This document shows positions 7,701 to 13,999 of a stretch of DNA of 31,123 bases, piece after piece. Position numbers and translations under genes: made by a program. How positions within the stretch are numbered: the stretch's first letter is position 1; every line of letters starts with the position of its first letter. This DNA is from a virus (taxonomy: Duplodnaviria; Heunggongvirae; Uroviricota; Caudoviricetes), in IMG/VR virus record IMGVR_UViG_2671181040_000014, one strand, 5' to 3'. The notes beneath the pieces are model-generated. The model had not been told where the DNA came from. It searched no databases and saw only the letters and a program-made list of their open reading frames with translations.

Positions 7701-7970
7701 ATGAAACTGACCTCTATCCATCTTGAAATACTACGTCGAGTGAATGAATTGCAGCCAAAGGATTCTAGAATTCAGGCTGCATCATTACCTCATCTCTCAG
7801 CAAAAGAGGTTAACTTTGCTATTTCAGATCTTGCTGATATAGGTTTTATCGATGTTATACGAAGCAAATCTGCCGAAGGTGGATTGATTGCTAATGAGAT
7901 AACGTCAAAAGGTTTTGCTTTTTTGAGTGAGATTGGCGCTGAAAAAAATTCATCGATGAGCACTCATTGA
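7701..7970 (+). CDS. small hypothetical protein (89 aa), possible winged-helix DNA-binding fold; first gene of an AT-rich moron
   Basis: Strong RBS (AGGAGAACATTATG). AT-rich codon usage unlike the flanking phage genes. Helix-rich pattern (LEILRRVNEL ... FAISDLADIGFID) only suggests a wHTH fold. Confidence 0.55.
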   Translation: MKLTSIHLEILRRVNELQPKDSRIQAASLPHLSAKEVNFAISDLADIGFIDVIRSKSAEGGLIANEITSKGFAFLSEIGAEKNSSMSTH

Positions 7971-8167: not shown

Positions 8168-8974
8168 GTGGAATCGAAAGTGTCATATTTTTACAGAAGC
8201 AAGAATATTTCAGGTGTTTCTATAAATGAAGATAGCTTGATTAGCTTAAGCACGGCAATTGTCGAACGCTGCGTTAAAATGAATGAGCAAGCTCAAAAGG
8301 AAAGTAGGGAAGTTTGTGCTCAATGTGTTTTTTTTATTTTGTTCGATGGTAAGGGGTATAAAGTTGATTCTATCGGTGAGCTTGTGAAATACTTTAGACA
8401 GGCCACTAGGATTGATCAAATAATTTTTACTATTGAAACTTATCAAAGTCGACAGTCTAACAGGATGAATGGATCTTGGATGGAGCTACGAATTGATGAG
8501 AGGAATTCAAATAGCAGCACAATGATTGTAGCATCGGAAGATAATGAGTGGGTTGACTCGTTATGGATTACGATTCAGGATTTACTTAACAAGTGCAAAA
8601 ATAAATTTAGATTTTTTAGAACAGCTTGGACTATGTTAAGTATCCAGATTTCAGGTGTGACAGTTGGCTTTTTGCTTAGCTTATGGACAGCCTCAAAACT
8701 GGCGCCAAAACTATCAATCGATGGTGCATTTGCTTTATCATTTATTTGTATCTTTATTTTGTTTTCGAACTTATGGAGCTTTGCTATTCCATTAATAATT
8801 AAGCTTATCGACTTTTTGTTTCCTAGTGTTAAGTTTGTTATTAATGGTAAAAATTACTTTCACTGGAGTGTCCAGGCTATAATTGGAGCGATTGCCAGTG
8901 CGGTTATATTGTATTTTATTAGCTCCATGTTGCTTTTTGCATTAGAAATGTTAAATAGCATCATTAAGAAATAG
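8168..8974 (+). CDS. hypothetical membrane protein: soluble N-terminal domain (~150 aa) plus three C-terminal hydrophobic helices; second gene of the moron
   Basis: 268-aa ORF in AT-rich DNA. Hydrophobic segments around residues 155-175, 187-215 and 235-262. Start codon uncertain (GTG at 8168 has a weak RBS; first in-frame ATG is at 8279). Confidence 0.5.
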   Translation: MESKVSYFYRSKNISGVSINEDSLISLSTAIVERCVKMNEQAQKESREVCAQCVFFILFDGKGYKVDSIGELVKYFRQATRIDQIIFTIETYQSRQSNRMNGSWMELRIDERNSNSSTMIVASEDNEWVDSLWITIQDLLNKCKNKFRFFRTAWTMLSIQISGVTVGFLLSLWTASKLAPKLSIDGAFALSFICIFILFSNLWSFAIPLIIKLIDFLFPSVKFVINGKNYFHWSVQAIIGAIASAVILYFISSMLLFALEMLNSIIKK

Positions 8975-9469: not shown

Positions 9470-9737
9470 CCCGACAGCAACTATAAATGCGCTGTTATGT
9501 GCTTGTGTTGTTATTACTCTGATGTTTTATCGTCGTGGCGACTCCAGACATCGACCGTGGATATCTCGCTTAGCGTGGCTGCTTACGGTCATTTATAGCG
9601 CCGTACCGCTGGCGTATCTGTGCGGTATCTACCCTTATTCATCGTGGGCCACTATCGTGGCCAACATTATTTTCCTGTCCGTGCTGGTCGCCGTCAGAGG
9701 CAATGTGGCACGTCTGGTTGACCATCTGAGGCACTAA
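9456..9737 (+). CDS. putative second holin or antiholin-like membrane protein
   Basis: 93-aa ORF from a GTG with GGGGAGG upstream; about three hydrophobic helices. Its stop overlaps the endolysin start (TAATG). Confidence 0.45.
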   Translation: MELNDPTATINALLCACVVITLMFYRRGDSRHRPWISRLAWLLTVIYSAVPLAYLCGIYPYSSWATIVANIIFLSVLVAVRGNVARLVDHLRH

Positions 9738-10351
9738 TGAACCAATCACAATTTCAGCAGGCGGCTGGTATCAGCGCCGATGTTTCTGCACGCTGGTTTC
9801 CGCACATTGATGCGGCAATGAAAGAGTTTGGTATTACAGCAGTTAATGATCAGGCCATGTTCATTGCACAAGTCGGGCATGAGTCTGCAGGATTTACTTC
9901 GCTGGCAGAGAGTTTTAACTACTCGGTTGAAGGGCTGAAGAAAACCTTTGGTAAGCGTCTGACGCCGTACCAGTGCGAAATGCTGGGGCGTGTCGATGGT
10001 AAACAGGTCGCTCACCAGCCGCAAATAGCCAATCTGGTTTACGGTGACCGCATGGGGAATAACAGCCAGGGTGACGGCTGGAAATATCGCGGTCGTGGCC
10101 TGCTTCAAATTACTGGCCGTGAGAACTACACCAAATGTGGTGCGGCGCTGAAACTTGACCTTGTCAATACACCAGAATTGCTAACGCAGGAGCGACATGC
10201 GGCCCGTTCGGCGGCGTGGTACTTCACGTTACGCGGTTGCTTGATGTATTCGGGTGACGTGGAACGTGTAACGCAGATTATTAACGGCGGACAGAATGGC
10301 ATTAAAGACCGCCGTGAACGTTACGCCAAAGCAAAAGCCGCACTGGTATGA
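9737..10351 (+). CDS. endolysin, glycoside hydrolase family 19 (chitinase-like lysozyme)
   Basis: 204 aa; motifs QVGHESAGF and YRGRGLLQITGRENY match GH19 signature regions as I recall them. Sits between the holin-like genes and the spanins. Confidence 0.8.
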   Translation: MNQSQFQQAAGISADVSARWFPHIDAAMKEFGITAVNDQAMFIAQVGHESAGFTSLAESFNYSVEGLKKTFGKRLTPYQCEMLGRVDGKQVAHQPQIANLVYGDRMGNNSQGDGWKYRGRGLLQITGRENYTKCGAALKLDLVNTPELLTQERHAARSAAWYFTLRGCLMYSGDVERVTQIINGGQNGIKDRRERYAKAKAALV

Positions 10352-10358
10352 GGTCACT

Positions 10359-10628
10359 ATGGGACTTGAAATGATTATCGGCCTGGTTGTTGCTGTGCTG
10401 GCTGCAATTGCAGGTGCTTTTGGTCTGGGTAAATCACGCGGTACAAGTATCGCAGAAACAAAAGCGGACCAGCAACGCACTGAAGAACGTGCAGCTGCTA
10501 CTGAAGCCGTTGCAGAACGTAGGGTAGAGACAACAAAAGGAGCCTGGGATGTACAGCAGACTGTTAATCATCTACCTGATGACGATGTTGACCGTGAGTT
10601 GCGCGAAAACTTTACCCGCAAAACCTGA
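10359..10628 (+). CDS. i-spanin (Rz-like): N-terminal transmembrane helix plus charged coiled-coil region
   Basis: ATG at 10359 with GAGGT RBS. MGLEMIIGLVVAVLAAIAGAFGL membrane anchor, then a Glu/Arg/Ala-rich helical region. Directly follows the endolysin. Confidence 0.6.
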   Translation: MGLEMIIGLVVAVLAAIAGAFGLGKSRGTSIAETKADQQRTEERAAATEAVAERRVETTKGAWDVQQTVNHLPDDDVDRELRENFTRKT

Positions 10629-10767
10629 AGTAACGGACACGGCCTGTGACTGGGTAAGAATCATCTACCTCACAGGTCAGGACATTGAAGTGCTGGATAA
10701 GCTTACGAAGCGGGATATTCTGGCACATAACAAAGCAGTACAGCGCAACTGTATTAGCCAGTTATGA
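10549..10767 (+). CDS. o-spanin (Rz1-like) lipoprotein candidate, overlapping the i-spanin gene out of frame
   Basis: 72-aa ORF with RBS AAAAGGAG. Signal-like N-terminus with a lipobox-like LTVSC. Starts inside the Rz-like gene in another frame and runs past its end. Confidence 0.55.
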   Translation: MYSRLLIIYLMTMLTVSCAKTLPAKPEVTDTACDWVRIIYLTGQDIEVLDKLTKRDILAHNKAVQRNCISQL

Positions 10768-10779
10768 GGCAAACGAGAT

Positions 10780-10804
10780 TGCGGGCAATTATCGCCCGCA
10801 ATAA
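10780..10804. terminator. bidirectional hairpin terminator between the lysis cassette and the antisense moron
   Basis: Perfect 9-bp stem ATTGCGGGC / GCCCGCAAT with a 7-nt loop, between the convergent ORFs ending at 10767 (+) and 10810 (-). Confidence 0.55.
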
Positions 10805-10809
10805 AGTTA

Positions 10810-11199
10810 TCAATTATCTCCTTTAAAGGAGTCGTATTCACCCCAATCAGCAAACCCAATCGGTCTTTTAGGGGTCTCTAAGCATAAGCGTTTTTTTCGG
10901 ATTAGCAGGACATTTATTTGAGATACATGCTGAACAAGTTCTACAGGACTGCCATCCTCCAGAGTACCAATGAAAGAAATTAATGATGGATTCCAGTAGC
11001 TTATGTCTGTGAAATGAAATTCAATGTTTTTACCAAAGCTAGCTAGTTGTCCTCCTACCTCATACTCTTCTTCAAGTTCACGGTGAAAATCATTTATCCA
11101 GCATATAAGGCGTCTATGAAATTCATTTGCAAGATTGTAGTCCTTTGGAACATATGGCTGTGAGTATTTGAGGAAATCATTCATGTAGTTATTTGTCAT
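10810..11199 (-). CDS. hypothetical protein encoded antisense to the late operon (moron), function unknown
   Basis: AT-rich minus-strand ORF. Preferred start is the third ATG (11199), which has AAGGA 7 nt upstream; the longest ORF reaches 11226. No signal peptide or recognisable motif. Confidence 0.5.
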   Translation of the reverse strand: MTNNYMNDFLKYSQPYVPKDYNLANEFHRRLICWINDFHRELEEEYEVGGQLASFGKNIEFHFTDISYWNPSLISFIGTLEDGSPVELVQHVSQINVLLIRKKRLCLETPKRPIGFADWGEYDSFKGDN

Positions 11200-11297
11200 C
11201 AGGGCGTCCTTTACGAGCATAACCATTGTTACTTAACGGATTGAAACGCTATTAAATAACATGGTTTCTATCATAATTTCTATCCGGAGTTTTCCAT

Positions 11298-11648
11298 ATG
11301 CCGCCACGAATCCCAAAAGCCTGCCGTGTTCGCGGCTGCCGTTCTACCACTACAGATCCGTCAGGCTACTGCGAAAATCATAAAGGTGAGGGCTGGAAAT
11401 CCTACAAGCCAGGTCAATCACGGCAGCAGCGCGGATATGGAACAAAGTGGGAAGTCATCCGGGAGCGGATACTAAAGCGCGACAAAGGGTTATGTCAGAA
11501 CCATCTTCGGCAGGGAGTTGTGAAGCAAGCGTCCTGCGTGGACCACCTCAAGGCGAAGGCTCACGGCGGCACTGATGAAGACAGCAACCTTGAGAGTCTG
11601 TGCTGGTCGTGTCACGCAGTGAAGACCGCGCGTGAGCGGTTCAGGTGA
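11298..11648 (+). CDS. HNH endonuclease (phage packaging-associated)
   Basis: 116 aa with Cys-rich zinc-finger-like N-terminus and an HNH-type core (CQNHLRQG...CVDHLKAKAHGG...NLESLCWSCH). Directly upstream of the terminase genes. Confidence 0.8.
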   Translation: MPPRIPKACRVRGCRSTTTDPSGYCENHKGEGWKSYKPGQSRQQRGYGTKWEVIRERILKRDKGLCQNHLRQGVVKQASCVDHLKAKAHGGTDEDSNLESLCWSCHAVKTARERFR

Positions 11649-11774
11649 GAATTGATGTCATCATCAGCCAGGGGAGGGGGAGGTCGAATCTTTGCAACCG
11701 CGCGCCTTCCGGACTGCCCGCCCCATCGTTTTTTTATACCCGCGAAAAATGAAATTTAACCAGGAGTGCCGCAT

Positions 11775-12269
11775 ATGGCTGGAACGGCGGGGCGTTCCGG
11801 GCGTCGCCCCAAGCCAACGGCGCGCAAGGCGCTGGCCGGAAACCCCGGCAAGCGAGCCCTGAATAAAGATGAACCTGTTTTTACGCCCATCAAAGGTGTT
11901 GAGCCACCGGAGTGGTTCGCTGAAGAAGATCTCCCTCTCGCCACGATCATGTGGCAACTGACAACTAAAGAACTCTGCGGTCAGGGCCTGCTGTGCGTGA
12001 CTGACCTCGCAGTGCTTGAGCGGTGGTGTGTGGCCTATGAGTTCTGGCGACGTGCCGTGAAAAATATTGCCAGACAGGGCAACACCATCACCGGTGCAAT
12101 GGGCGGTATGGTCAAAAATCCGGAGCTGACCGCCAAAAAAGAACAGGAGTCCGAGATGAGCAGTACGGGGGCAATGCTCGGACTCGACCCCAGCAGCCGC
12201 CAGCGTCTGATTGGCCTGGCGGGGAAGAAGAAAGCCACTAACCCGTTTCTGAAAATCATCGAATCATGA
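11775..12269 (+). CDS. terminase small subunit (P27-family type)
   Basis: ATG at 11775 with CAGGAG RBS. Basic N-terminus ([13 protein letters not shown]). Its stop overlaps the TerL start (ATGA). Confidence 0.75.
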
Positions 12270-13999
12270 GCCGGAAATCTTACCCCAACGTAAATGCTGC
12301 CAATCAGTATGCCCGTGATGTCGTGCGCGGAAAGATTGTGGCCTGCCAGTTTGTGATTCAGGCCTGCCAGCGGCATCTTGATGACCTGATGGCGGAAAAA
12401 AGTAAGTCGTTTCGTTACCGCTTCGACAAGGACCTGGCTGAACGGGCCGCTAAATTTATTCAGCTGTTGCCGCACACCAAGGGTGAGTGGGCATTTAAGA
12501 GGATGCCCATCACGCTGGAGCTGTGGCAGCTCTTTGTGATCTGCTGCGCGTTTGGCTGGGTCAATAAAGGCTCCCGGCTGCGCCGCTTCCGTGAGGTGTA
12601 TACCGAAATCCCCCGTAAGAACGGCAAATCGGCAATCTCTGCCGGTGTCGCCCTGTATTGTTTTGCCTGTGATAACGAGTTCGGCGCGGAAGTGTATTCC
12701 GGTGCCACGACGGAGAAACAGGCATGGGAAGTCTTTCGTCCGGCAAGACTGATGTGTAAACGCACACCCATGCTGACGGAAGCGTTCGGGATTGAGGTTA
12801 ACGCCTCAAACATGAACCGTCCGGAGGATGGTGCGCGTTTTGAACCGCTGATCGGTAACCCCGGTGATGGTTCATCACCCCACTGTGCGGTGGTGGATGA
12901 ATATCACGAGCACGCCACCGATGCGCTTTACACCACGATGCTTACCGGGATGGGGGCGCGACGTCAGCCACTGATGTGGGCCATTACTACTGCCGGGTAC
13001 AACATTGAGGGGCCGTGCTACGACAAGCGGCGGGAAGTTATCGAGATGCTCAACGGGTCGGTACCCAACGATGAACTGTTCGGGATCATCTATACCGTTG
13101 ACGAAGGCGATGACTGGACCGACCCGCAGGTGCTGGAAAAAGCCAATCCAAATATTGGCGTGTCGGTTTATCGCGAATTTTTGTTAAGTCAGCAGCAGCG
13201 TGCGAAAAATAACGCCCGTCTGGCAAACGTCTTTAAAACAAAACACCTCAATATCTGGGTGTCGGCGCGTTCGGCGTATTTCAATCTGGTGAGCTGGCAG
13301 AGCTGCGAGGATAAATCACTGACCCTTGAGCAGTTCGAGGGGCAGCCGTGCATTCTGGCCTTTGACCTGGCGCGTAAGCTGGATATGAACAGTATGGCGC
13401 GACTTTATACCCGCGAGATTGACGGTAAAACGCATTACTACAGTGTGGCCCCGCGTTTCTGGGTACCGTATGACACGGTGTACAGCGTCGAGAAAAATGA
13501 AGATCGACGGACAGCCGAACGCTTTCAGAAATGGGTGGAAATGGGCGTTCTGACCGTTACCGATGGTGCGGAGGTGGATTATCGCTACATCCTCGAGGAG
13601 GCCAAAGCGGCGAACAAAATCAGCCCGGTCAGTGAGTCACCCATCGACCCCTTCGGGGCGACCGGGTTGTCACATGACCTTGCTGATGAAGACCTGAACC
13701 CCATCACTATCATTCAGAACTACACCAACATGTCCGACCCGATGAAAGAGCTGGAAGCGGCAATTGAATCGGGGCGCTTTCATCATGATGGCAATCCCAT
13801 CATGACCTGGTGTATCGGCAACGTGGTCGGCAAAACCATTCCGGGTAACGATGATGTGGTGAAGCCCGTCAAAGAGCAGGCGGAAAACAAAATCGATGGT
13901 GCAGTTGCGCTGATTATGGCGGTTGGCAGAGCCATGCTGTACGAGAAAGAAGACACGCTGTCTGACCACATTGAGTCCTATGGGATCCGCTCGCTTTAA
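12266..13999 (+). CDS. terminase large subunit
   Basis: 577 aa; Walker A-like [11 protein letters not shown]; acidic nuclease-type C-terminal half. Sits between TerS and the portal. Confidence 0.9.

Follow-up and report, generated by a model that had tools for sequence, protein, structure and literature searches.

The bor gene of phage lambda and its homolog iss of Escherichia coli are lysogen-expressed morons, which encode a serum-resistance lipoprotein. The term moron is used here in the sense of Hendrix and co-workers, that is, for an independently transcribed extra prophage gene. Single-gene anti-phage cassettes have also been described for integrons of Vibrio cholerae, where about 18% of the cassettes of unknown function are reported to be active against phages (bioRxiv 10.1101/2024.07.02.601686). 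Here, we describe a gene at positions 10810-11199 (minus strand) of the IMG/VR record IMGVR_UViG_2671181040_000014, a temperate E. coli prophage of the class Caudoviricetes; the whole stretch of 31,123 nucleotides is referred to as the window. The gene encodes a protein of the Pfam family DUF6173 and shares its slot and strand with iss/bor of sibling prophages. Like bor and iss, it is small single-gene cargo; however, there is no sequence relationship between the proteins, and the DUF6173 protein has no lipobox, membrane segment or signal peptide (maximum of the 19-residue Kyte-Doolittle window: 0.74), the last of which had already been stated in the preliminary description of the window. The protein is cytoplasmic and acidic with an isoelectric point (pI) of around 5.1, and therefore cannot work as an outer-membrane lipoprotein in the manner of Bor or Iss; its only cysteines are residues 42 and 115. 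With the V. cholerae cassettes, the family has in common that it occurs as a short, partner-less cassette in Vibrio, Aeromonas and Oxalicibacterium; DUF6173 is absent from the domain descriptions of nine of the preprint's 16 active cassettes. The gene of the window is real, foreign in composition, swapped at its site and solitary, and it belongs to a strongly conserved family. It is best read as a prophage moron with a catalogued orphan family and not as a new kind of system.

The gene lies in the interval 10768-11297, which is the exact gap between the stop codon of the spanin-like gene Rz1 (10767) and the start codon of the gene for an HNH protein (11298), and the following features were assigned in and around it.

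10810..11199, minus strand: DUF6173 gene in its 129-amino acid form (favored start, M10), the start of which is used by the RefSeq coding sequence WP_000184049.1; stop codon at 10810-10812
11200..11226, minus strand: possible N-terminal extension or 5' untranslated region with alternative ATG codons at 11226 and 11220; contains AAGGA (11211-11207)
11227..11297, minus strand: AT-rich intergenic region of 71 bp (GC content of 0.31), from which the DUF6173 gene and HNH diverge; presumed promoter region
10778..10802, no strand assigned: inverted repeat that forms a hairpin, located in the 42 bp that separate the converging genes Rz1 and DUF6173
10752..11536, no strand assigned: exchanged cargo slot, in which no DNA homology to the F6326-C1 prophage was detected; includes the diverged 5' part of HNH

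The minus strand of the gap holds a single long open reading frame (ORF) from 10810 to 11226 (138 amino acids, ATG start) with in-frame ATG codons at 11220 (136 amino acids) and 11199 (129 amino acids), which agrees with the low-GC ORF of 129 to 138 amino acids opposite to the late operon that had been described before. Only the start at 11199 is preceded by a Shine-Dalgarno sequence (AAGGA, 11211-11207, 7 nucleotides upstream), and the N-terminus is unconserved in the DUF6173 family and modeled with a predicted local distance difference test score (pLDDT) below 50. The ORF has a GC content of 0.374 and a GC content at third codon positions (GC3) of 0.32, compared to a GC content of 0.50 for the lysis cassette and 0.55 for HNH-terS-terL, the genes of the HNH protein and of the small and large terminase subunits (terL GC3 0.65). 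Its composition is thus foreign and distinct from that of the flanking phage genes. Because the protein matches DUF6173, has 160 close homologs and belongs to a family with 28 invariant alignment columns, the ORF is a real gene and not a chance ORF. Downstream of the stop codon, the hairpin contains a perfect 9-bp palindrome, which extends to a GC-rich stem of 11 pairs on the minus-strand RNA. Its arms, ATTGCGGGC and GCCCGCAAT, give a folding free energy of -18 kcal/mol on either strand (z-scores of -4.2 and -4.4), and none of 200 shuffled sequences was as stable. The bidirectional hairpin that had been placed at 10780-10804 therefore exists on both strands, but is located two nucleotides away, at 10778-10802, and it is best described as a bidirectional stem-loop that resembles a terminator but has no clear U-tract. 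In each of the prophage copies examined (Klebsiella, Proteus, Yersinia and the window), the stop codon is followed by a separate hairpin that is not homologous to the others.

Comparison with related prophages revealed that the contents of the region between Rz1 and HNH are exchanged. In a blastn comparison with the sibling prophage of E. coli F6326-C1, homology is found only from 9700 to 10751 (90%) and from 11537 to 12300 (97%), and the slot of F6326-C1 holds two different plus-strand ORFs. Since homology resumes only at 11537, the recombination boundary of the slot lies within the HNH gene. Over its first 240 bp (11298-11536), HNH is nearer to the HNH genes of the Shigella phages SfI/SfII/SfIV (82-86%), and when the region was compared with cultured phages by megablast, the HNH part alone was matched, in the same SfI/SfII/SfIV group. 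Sibling slots were compared among prophages that share the module of HNH, P27-family terS and terL. The slot contains DUF6979 in phage SfI and a different antisense gene in E. coli PA45B (locus L161, 2458-2898, minus strand), which encodes the 146-amino acid hypothetical protein WP_000026993.1 and is another uncharacterized antisense moron at the Rz-HNH site; in one sibling prophage, nothing is annotated in the slot. In strains EC28 and O157:H7 F8092B, the slot is occupied by iss in antisense orientation, with HNH on one side and rzpD, a spanin gene of the Rz type, on the other. The analogy to bor, which had been drawn from the equivalent position in lambda, thus holds in a direct comparison with two sibling strains, and the insertion of a moron is borne out by the break in homology to F6326-C1 and by the other cargo of the siblings. 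As siblings hold different contents at this position, the slot is a cargo swap site; the DUF6173 gene is replaced or absent at the site in close relatives and differs in composition from its flanks, as expected for a moron. An identical 801-bp segment with the DUF6173 gene is present in 32 of 5,426 complete E. coli genomes, and another 432 match the HNH part alone. Among the 25 genomes listed of these 32 carriers, around half are from poultry isolates (avian pathogenic E. coli O78, chicken, duck), which suggests that the prophage variant with DUF6173 is concentrated in avian-associated lineages. In F8092B (locus L162, 1559-3222), the HNH gene beside iss is split by an insertion of IS1203, an element of the IS3 family, so that HNH-dependent packaging of this prophage is probably disabled.

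The protein encoded in the slot matches Pfam DUF6173 (PF19670) with an E-value of 3.8e-21 and 75.8 bits, compared to a cut-off of 27 bits, over model positions 16 to 101 of 102. The 129-amino acid form gives the same result, and DUF6173 is the sole Pfam match. The protein furthermore matches PHROG 3306 (phrog_3306, unknown function) with an E-value of 2.4e-17, and RefSeq already names WP_000184049.1 'DUF6173 family protein'. It is a clear member of this family of no known function and does not differ from it; the earlier statement that the protein contains no recognizable motif is therefore superseded. A literature search retrieved no paper mentioning DUF6173 (PF19670, phrog_3306), WP_000184049 or APECO78_14710, and a wider search on the Sm-like fold in connection with prophages and defense found nothing relevant. 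Contigs with the exact 129-amino acid sequence number at least 1000 and come from E. coli, Salmonella and Citrobacter. The 160 close homologs, with 56-99% identity, are found in Gamma-, Beta- and Deltaproteobacteria, and members with 43-60% identity to the protein of the window occur in Acidobacteria, Bacillota, Cyanobacteria, Planctomycetes, Bacteroidota and further phyla. Altogether, the family comprises 1,497 clusters at 50% identity (E-value of 1e-3 or better). An alignment of 47 diverse members contains 28 invariant columns in a core of around 105 residues, ahead of which the N-terminus is variable; the C-terminal tail PKRPIGFxxW is highly conserved to invariant, and the invariant polar residues are N45, H48, E56, Q99, H100, Q103 and R113.

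The DUF6173 core is always C-terminal in homologs. N-terminal extensions of the longer homologs consist of tandem short amphipathic repeats of around 10 to 35 amino acids, whose sequence differs by lineage; examples from the distant homologs P0121, P0145, P0190, P0211 and P0259 are NPAMKLVDDAMRVAD, PANFAEEMV and DLEFAKK. The sole recognizable fusion, present in two of 34 long homologs (P0141 and P0145), is to an N-terminal XRE-type helix-turn-helix (HTH) domain, and one of these HTH-DUF6173 fusions lies in a Chlorobiaceae prophage beside a P22-type coat gene. In the fusions, DUF6173 takes the usual place of a sensor, oligomerization or partner-binding domain.

DUF6173 genes are carried by diverse mobile elements. 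The preliminary description had tied its proposal to conservation of the ORF at this site among related prophages, and such conservation is found: homologs lie antisense to the late operon and directly upstream of terS in prophages of Klebsiella, Proteus, Yersinia and Sodalis and in metagenomic prophages. These prophages differ in their head and terminase modules, and their terS genes belong to at least three families (phrog_1206, phrog_51/Terminase_2 and P27). Among the divergent prophage neighbors tested, nine of ten are small terminases of two PHROG families, and the remaining one is a minor tail protein. In a Paenibacillus phage-plasmid, DUF6173 is antisense to all flanking genes and near terS, and it constitutes gene 1 of the P2-like Pseudoalteromonas phage C5a, convergent with the integrase gene int. 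In the Clostridioides difficile phage phiCDKH02, the gene runs in the same direction as the repressor/ImmA module and against the early lytic genes. The copies of Vibrio and Oxalicibacterium are found in same-strand cassette-like arrays with V. cholerae repeat (VCR)/attC-like sequences at both ends, as judged by eye, and an IntI-like gene adjoins the DUF6173 array in Oxalicibacterium and Aeromonas; the copy of the window itself is not an integron cassette. In total, 11 of 72,556 plasmids carry DUF6173, among them small plasmids of Acinetobacter baumannii.

Several copies are located near defense or toxin-antitoxin genes. The array of Aeromonas has DUF6173 flanked by Mrr/Ymh genes on one side and a Hachiman system on the other, the copy of Pseudomonas oryzihabitans adjoins a Pycsar system and a resolvase, and a marine cassette array contains DUF6173 among ParE/Phd pairs; a TIR protein, S_4TM, restriction-modification systems and AbiEii are also found among the neighbors. 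On marine contigs, DUF6173 occurs in a Tn3 context, downstream of the remnant of an OLD-like nuclease, which is intact in Methylophaga. There (L079, 2952-4910), the 652-amino acid nuclease (AAA_15 and TOPRIM) is encoded on the same strand, 75 bp upstream of DUF6173. On the Tara contigs L013 and L014, only the C-terminal 212 amino acids of the nuclease were called, directly after a Tn3-family transposase gene, which suggests that it was truncated by the transposon; contig L084 carries a 212-amino acid remnant of the identical type, and all copies are 97-100% identical. A pair of 'TOPRIM and DUF6173' in Tn3 contexts was therefore rejected as a recurrent partnership, as a single lineage with the remains of one OLD-like nuclease accounts for it. 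A neighbor census of 103 de-duplicated DUF6173 loci did not reveal a conserved partner: 75 Pfam families were found among 98 upstream neighbors and 51 among 100 downstream neighbors. All-versus-all clustering of 925 neighboring ORFs yielded no recurrent family except enterobacterial prophage genes.

An AlphaFold2 model built on the family alignment reached a mean pLDDT of 83.7 and a predicted template modeling score (pTM) of 0.71, with blocks from residue 31 onwards at 86 to 97 and a core at 90 or above. In this model, residues 1 to 30 are disordered and a helix (residues 32 to 50) is followed by five antiparallel strands (55-63, 66-78, 82-88, 94-100 and 106-112), after which come the PKRPIGFxxW segment and a short C-terminal helix. 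An N-terminal helix in front of a five-stranded, strongly bent antiparallel sheet is characteristic of Sm-type folds, and the model has both. The protein is thus predicted to be a small beta-barrel with Sm-like topology, which is not filed in the Sm/Hfq family. In comparison with Sm-fold proteins such as Hfq, LSm/SmAP, the N-domain of Pelota/Dom34 and Gemin6/7, DUF6173 lacks the Sm1 and Sm2 motifs, is net acidic (family median pI 5.25, net charge of about -6) and possesses the additional conserved PKRPIGFxxW segment and helix at its C-terminus. Sequence kinship was rejected for Hfq and for archaeal Sm proteins, for which hhalign gave probabilities of 0.15% and 0.14%, respectively, with a query alignment that had been validated against the Protein Data Bank (PDB); Pfam gave no LSM or Hfq match at E-values up to 10. 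R67 (type II) dihydrofolate reductase, an integron-borne SH3-like barrel that appeared as a weak Foldseek match, was likewise rejected (hhalign probability of 0.06%). The HMM and structure searches that had been proposed earlier thus identified the Pfam and PHROG family, but Foldseek searches of the model against the PDB and the viral structures of BFVD gave nothing at an E-value of 0.001 or below; a profile search against PDB sequences also gave nothing significant. HTH regulators with an Sm-like/WYL C-terminal sensor, for instance DriD, resemble the protein of the window at the level of the fold only, and the latter has no DNA-binding domain. No recognizable catalytic motif was found in the protein.

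The locus may best be explained as a horizontally acquired, self-contained accessory gene in the lysis/packaging slot, where siblings carry iss/bor on the same strand, and DUF6173 as autonomous single-gene cargo without a conserved partner, whose prophage copies usually lie antisense beside terS or int. In a first step, the gene would be transcribed on its own against the late operon, chiefly in the lysogen. From the arrangement of the genes, such solitary transcription, mainly in the lysogen, appears probable; we infer it from the orientation opposite to the late operon, the hairpins specific to each copy and, where it can be judged (phiCDKH02), the orientation shared with lysogeny genes. In a second step, the protein would bind stoichiometrically to a conserved macromolecule and would not catalyze a reaction. 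Binding of this kind is the likelier mode of action given the modeled small-barrel fold, which is non-enzymatic, the acidic charge, the absence of a catalytic motif and the sensor or partner-binding position in the HTH fusions. In a third step, the pay-off would be protection of the lysogen. The leading option for this pay-off is phage exclusion or defense by the single protein, as defense genes are found nearby; by analogy with the V. cholerae cassettes, whose share of active members was taken as a base rate, this option is conceivable, if doubtful. Neutralization of a toxin or nuclease comes next and is unlikely. The earlier suggestion of a lysogenic-conversion or defense-related gene is accordingly reasonable from the genomic context, but was not backed by any PADLOC model. 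The explanation as a whole, i.e., an autonomous, lysogen-expressed cargo gene for a binder rather than an enzyme with a possible role in defense, is put forward tentatively, somewhat short of an even chance.

Several results weigh against parts of this explanation. Regarding transcription, a terminator scan did not call the hairpin at 10778-10802, as it has no U-tract. The 70-bp AT-rich region that had been thought to hold the promoter does exist (71 bp), but a promoter scan found no consensus sigma-70 site in 11227-11297. A relaxed scan, which asked for at least 9 of 12 consensus positions with a standard spacer, found no site of this quality upstream of the DUF6173 gene; its best candidate is the -10-like hexamer TATGAT (11275-11270), whose -35 element is poor and wrongly spaced. 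Promoter-like sites are also not enriched upstream of divergent DUF6173 copies (9 of 30 loci, compared to 5.9 expected). Furthermore, DUF6173 is co-oriented and overlapping with HNH-terS-terL in a KSB1 prophage, and several Firmicute copies are co-oriented with adjacent small phage genes; therefore, DUF6173 is not always an antisense gene of the lysogen type. Regarding the mode of action, the invariant polar residues might still form a small site for catalysis or metal binding. Regarding defense, a scan against PADLOC-DB v2 matched no defense family at E-values up to 1, and an NCBIfam scan gave no match. The surroundings of most chromosomal copies are ordinary housekeeping genes, and only two distinct cultured phages carry the gene (three of 50,697 phage records). 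Identities of 43-60% across phyla are moreover atypical of fast-evolving defense or counter-defense proteins and suggest a conserved cellular partner instead. A more specific proposal builds on the modeled fold: DUF6173 might represent an unrecognized class of mobile, stand-alone Sm-like small-barrel proteins that dock on a universally conserved cell machine, for which the transcription-termination, translation or RNA-decay apparatus would be candidates, and thereby give single-gene phage exclusion or host reprogramming. Such an effector would explain the conservation across phyla, the absence of partners and the spread via moron slots, integrons, transposons and plasmids; we give it a low probability.

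The alternative that survives best, although unlikely, is that DUF6173 is an immunity- or antitoxin-like orphan inhibitor, which blocks a conserved toxin or nuclease domain, for instance of a bacteriocin, of a type VI secretion or contact-dependent inhibition effector or of a toxin-antitoxin toxin. SMI1/KNR4 is a known superfamily of immunity proteins, and a same-strand array of TPR, SMI1/KNR4 and DUF6173 was found once, on a 7.7-kb plasmid of A. baumannii. The marine copies in cassette arrays rich in ParE/Phd toxin-antitoxin pairs, the one lineage with DUF6173 directly downstream of an OLD-like nuclease and the HTH-DUF6173 fusions, which resemble the architecture of HTH antitoxins, point in the same direction, as do the small size, acidity, cytoplasmic location and solitary occurrence of the protein on mobile elements. 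However, each of these supporting contexts comes from a single lineage, no toxin gene recurs as a neighbor, and immunity proteins usually diverge fast, whereas DUF6173 is unusually conserved. A little less probable still is a role as an Sm/Hfq-like RNA binder, i.e., a mobile RNA chaperone or a competitor of Hfq that would rewire post-transcriptional regulation in the lysogen. It is the modeled Sm-like topology that suggests this role; the hhalign probabilities, the lack of LSM or Hfq matches in Pfam and the absence of significant Foldseek hits in the PDB speak against it, and the net charge of around -6 in the family, unlike that of RNA-binding Sm cores, weighs against RNA binding in general.

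A counter-defense protein of mobile elements, which would inhibit host immunity, for instance as an acidic mimic of nucleic acids or as a sponge for signals, is improbable. An acidic, small protein that is borne by phages, plasmids and transposons and adjoins Pycsar, Hachiman or OLD in some genomes would be in line with such a function; however, most prophage copies are oriented against the lytic or late genes, other copies reside in sedentary cassette arrays of chromosomes or next to housekeeping genes, and the structure search against viral proteins gave no known anti-defense fold. Least probable is a function in DNA packaging, to which the near-constant adjacency to terS or HNH-terS (nine of the ten prophage neighbors tested, the overlapping KSB1 copy, the Paenibacillus phage-plasmid) might point, as among 1,177 E. 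coli genomes with matches to the wider region, mostly to its packaging genes, only 32 carry the DUF6173 segment, sibling slots with the same packaging module hold iss, other ORFs or nothing, DUF6173 is also found in integrons, Tn3 contexts, plasmids and chromosomal sites without a terminase, and the junction between lysis and packaging genes is a general hotspot for cargo.

Returning to DUF6173 as autonomous cargo, the family is tractable and unusually conserved for an orphan family, it always occurs as a single gene, has been captured by every major class of mobile elements and is often found among defense genes. Should DUF6173 prove to act as a single protein in defense, immunity or regulation, the accessory genes of mobile elements would be extended by a new and very compact module, and the partner of the protein would then probably be a conserved host component. 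The gene is thus a good experimental target, although not a surprising finding per se. In addition, the Rz-HNH junction is documented here as a swap site for iss/bor, DUF6173, DUF6979 and other unknown genes, which makes it useful for cargo mining.

The remaining genes of the window are those of a temperate phage related to SfI and SfII. The same DNA is annotated in E. coli AMSHJX01, where it first encodes an integrase, an excisionase, repressor-type regulators and a Q-like antiterminator. These are followed by two holins, a GH19 endolysin, two short spanin-like ORFs, HNH, a P27-family terS and terL and, after terL, by the portal, an HK97-type protease, the capsid and a contractile tail. No RNA family of Rfam was matched between 10300 and 11700. 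The two spanin-like ORFs upstream of the cargo slot and two further ORFs of a second low-GC island are as follows.

10359-10628, plus strand: first spanin-like ORF with an N-terminal membrane helix; hypothetical protein in RefSeq
10585-10767, plus strand: second spanin-like ORF with a lipoprotein-like LTVSC motif, overlapping the end of the first; hypothetical protein in RefSeq
7701-7970, plus strand: ORF of 89 amino acids in a second low-GC island; hypothetical in RefSeq
8180-8974, plus strand: ORF of 264 amino acids in the same island; hypothetical in RefSeq, no Pfam match

Judged from their sequence features, the first two ORFs would fit an overlapped Rz/Rz1 pair. The second low-GC island (GC content of 0.30-0.38) sits between the Q-like antiterminator and the holins and is probably a further cargo insertion, which is oriented with the late operon.

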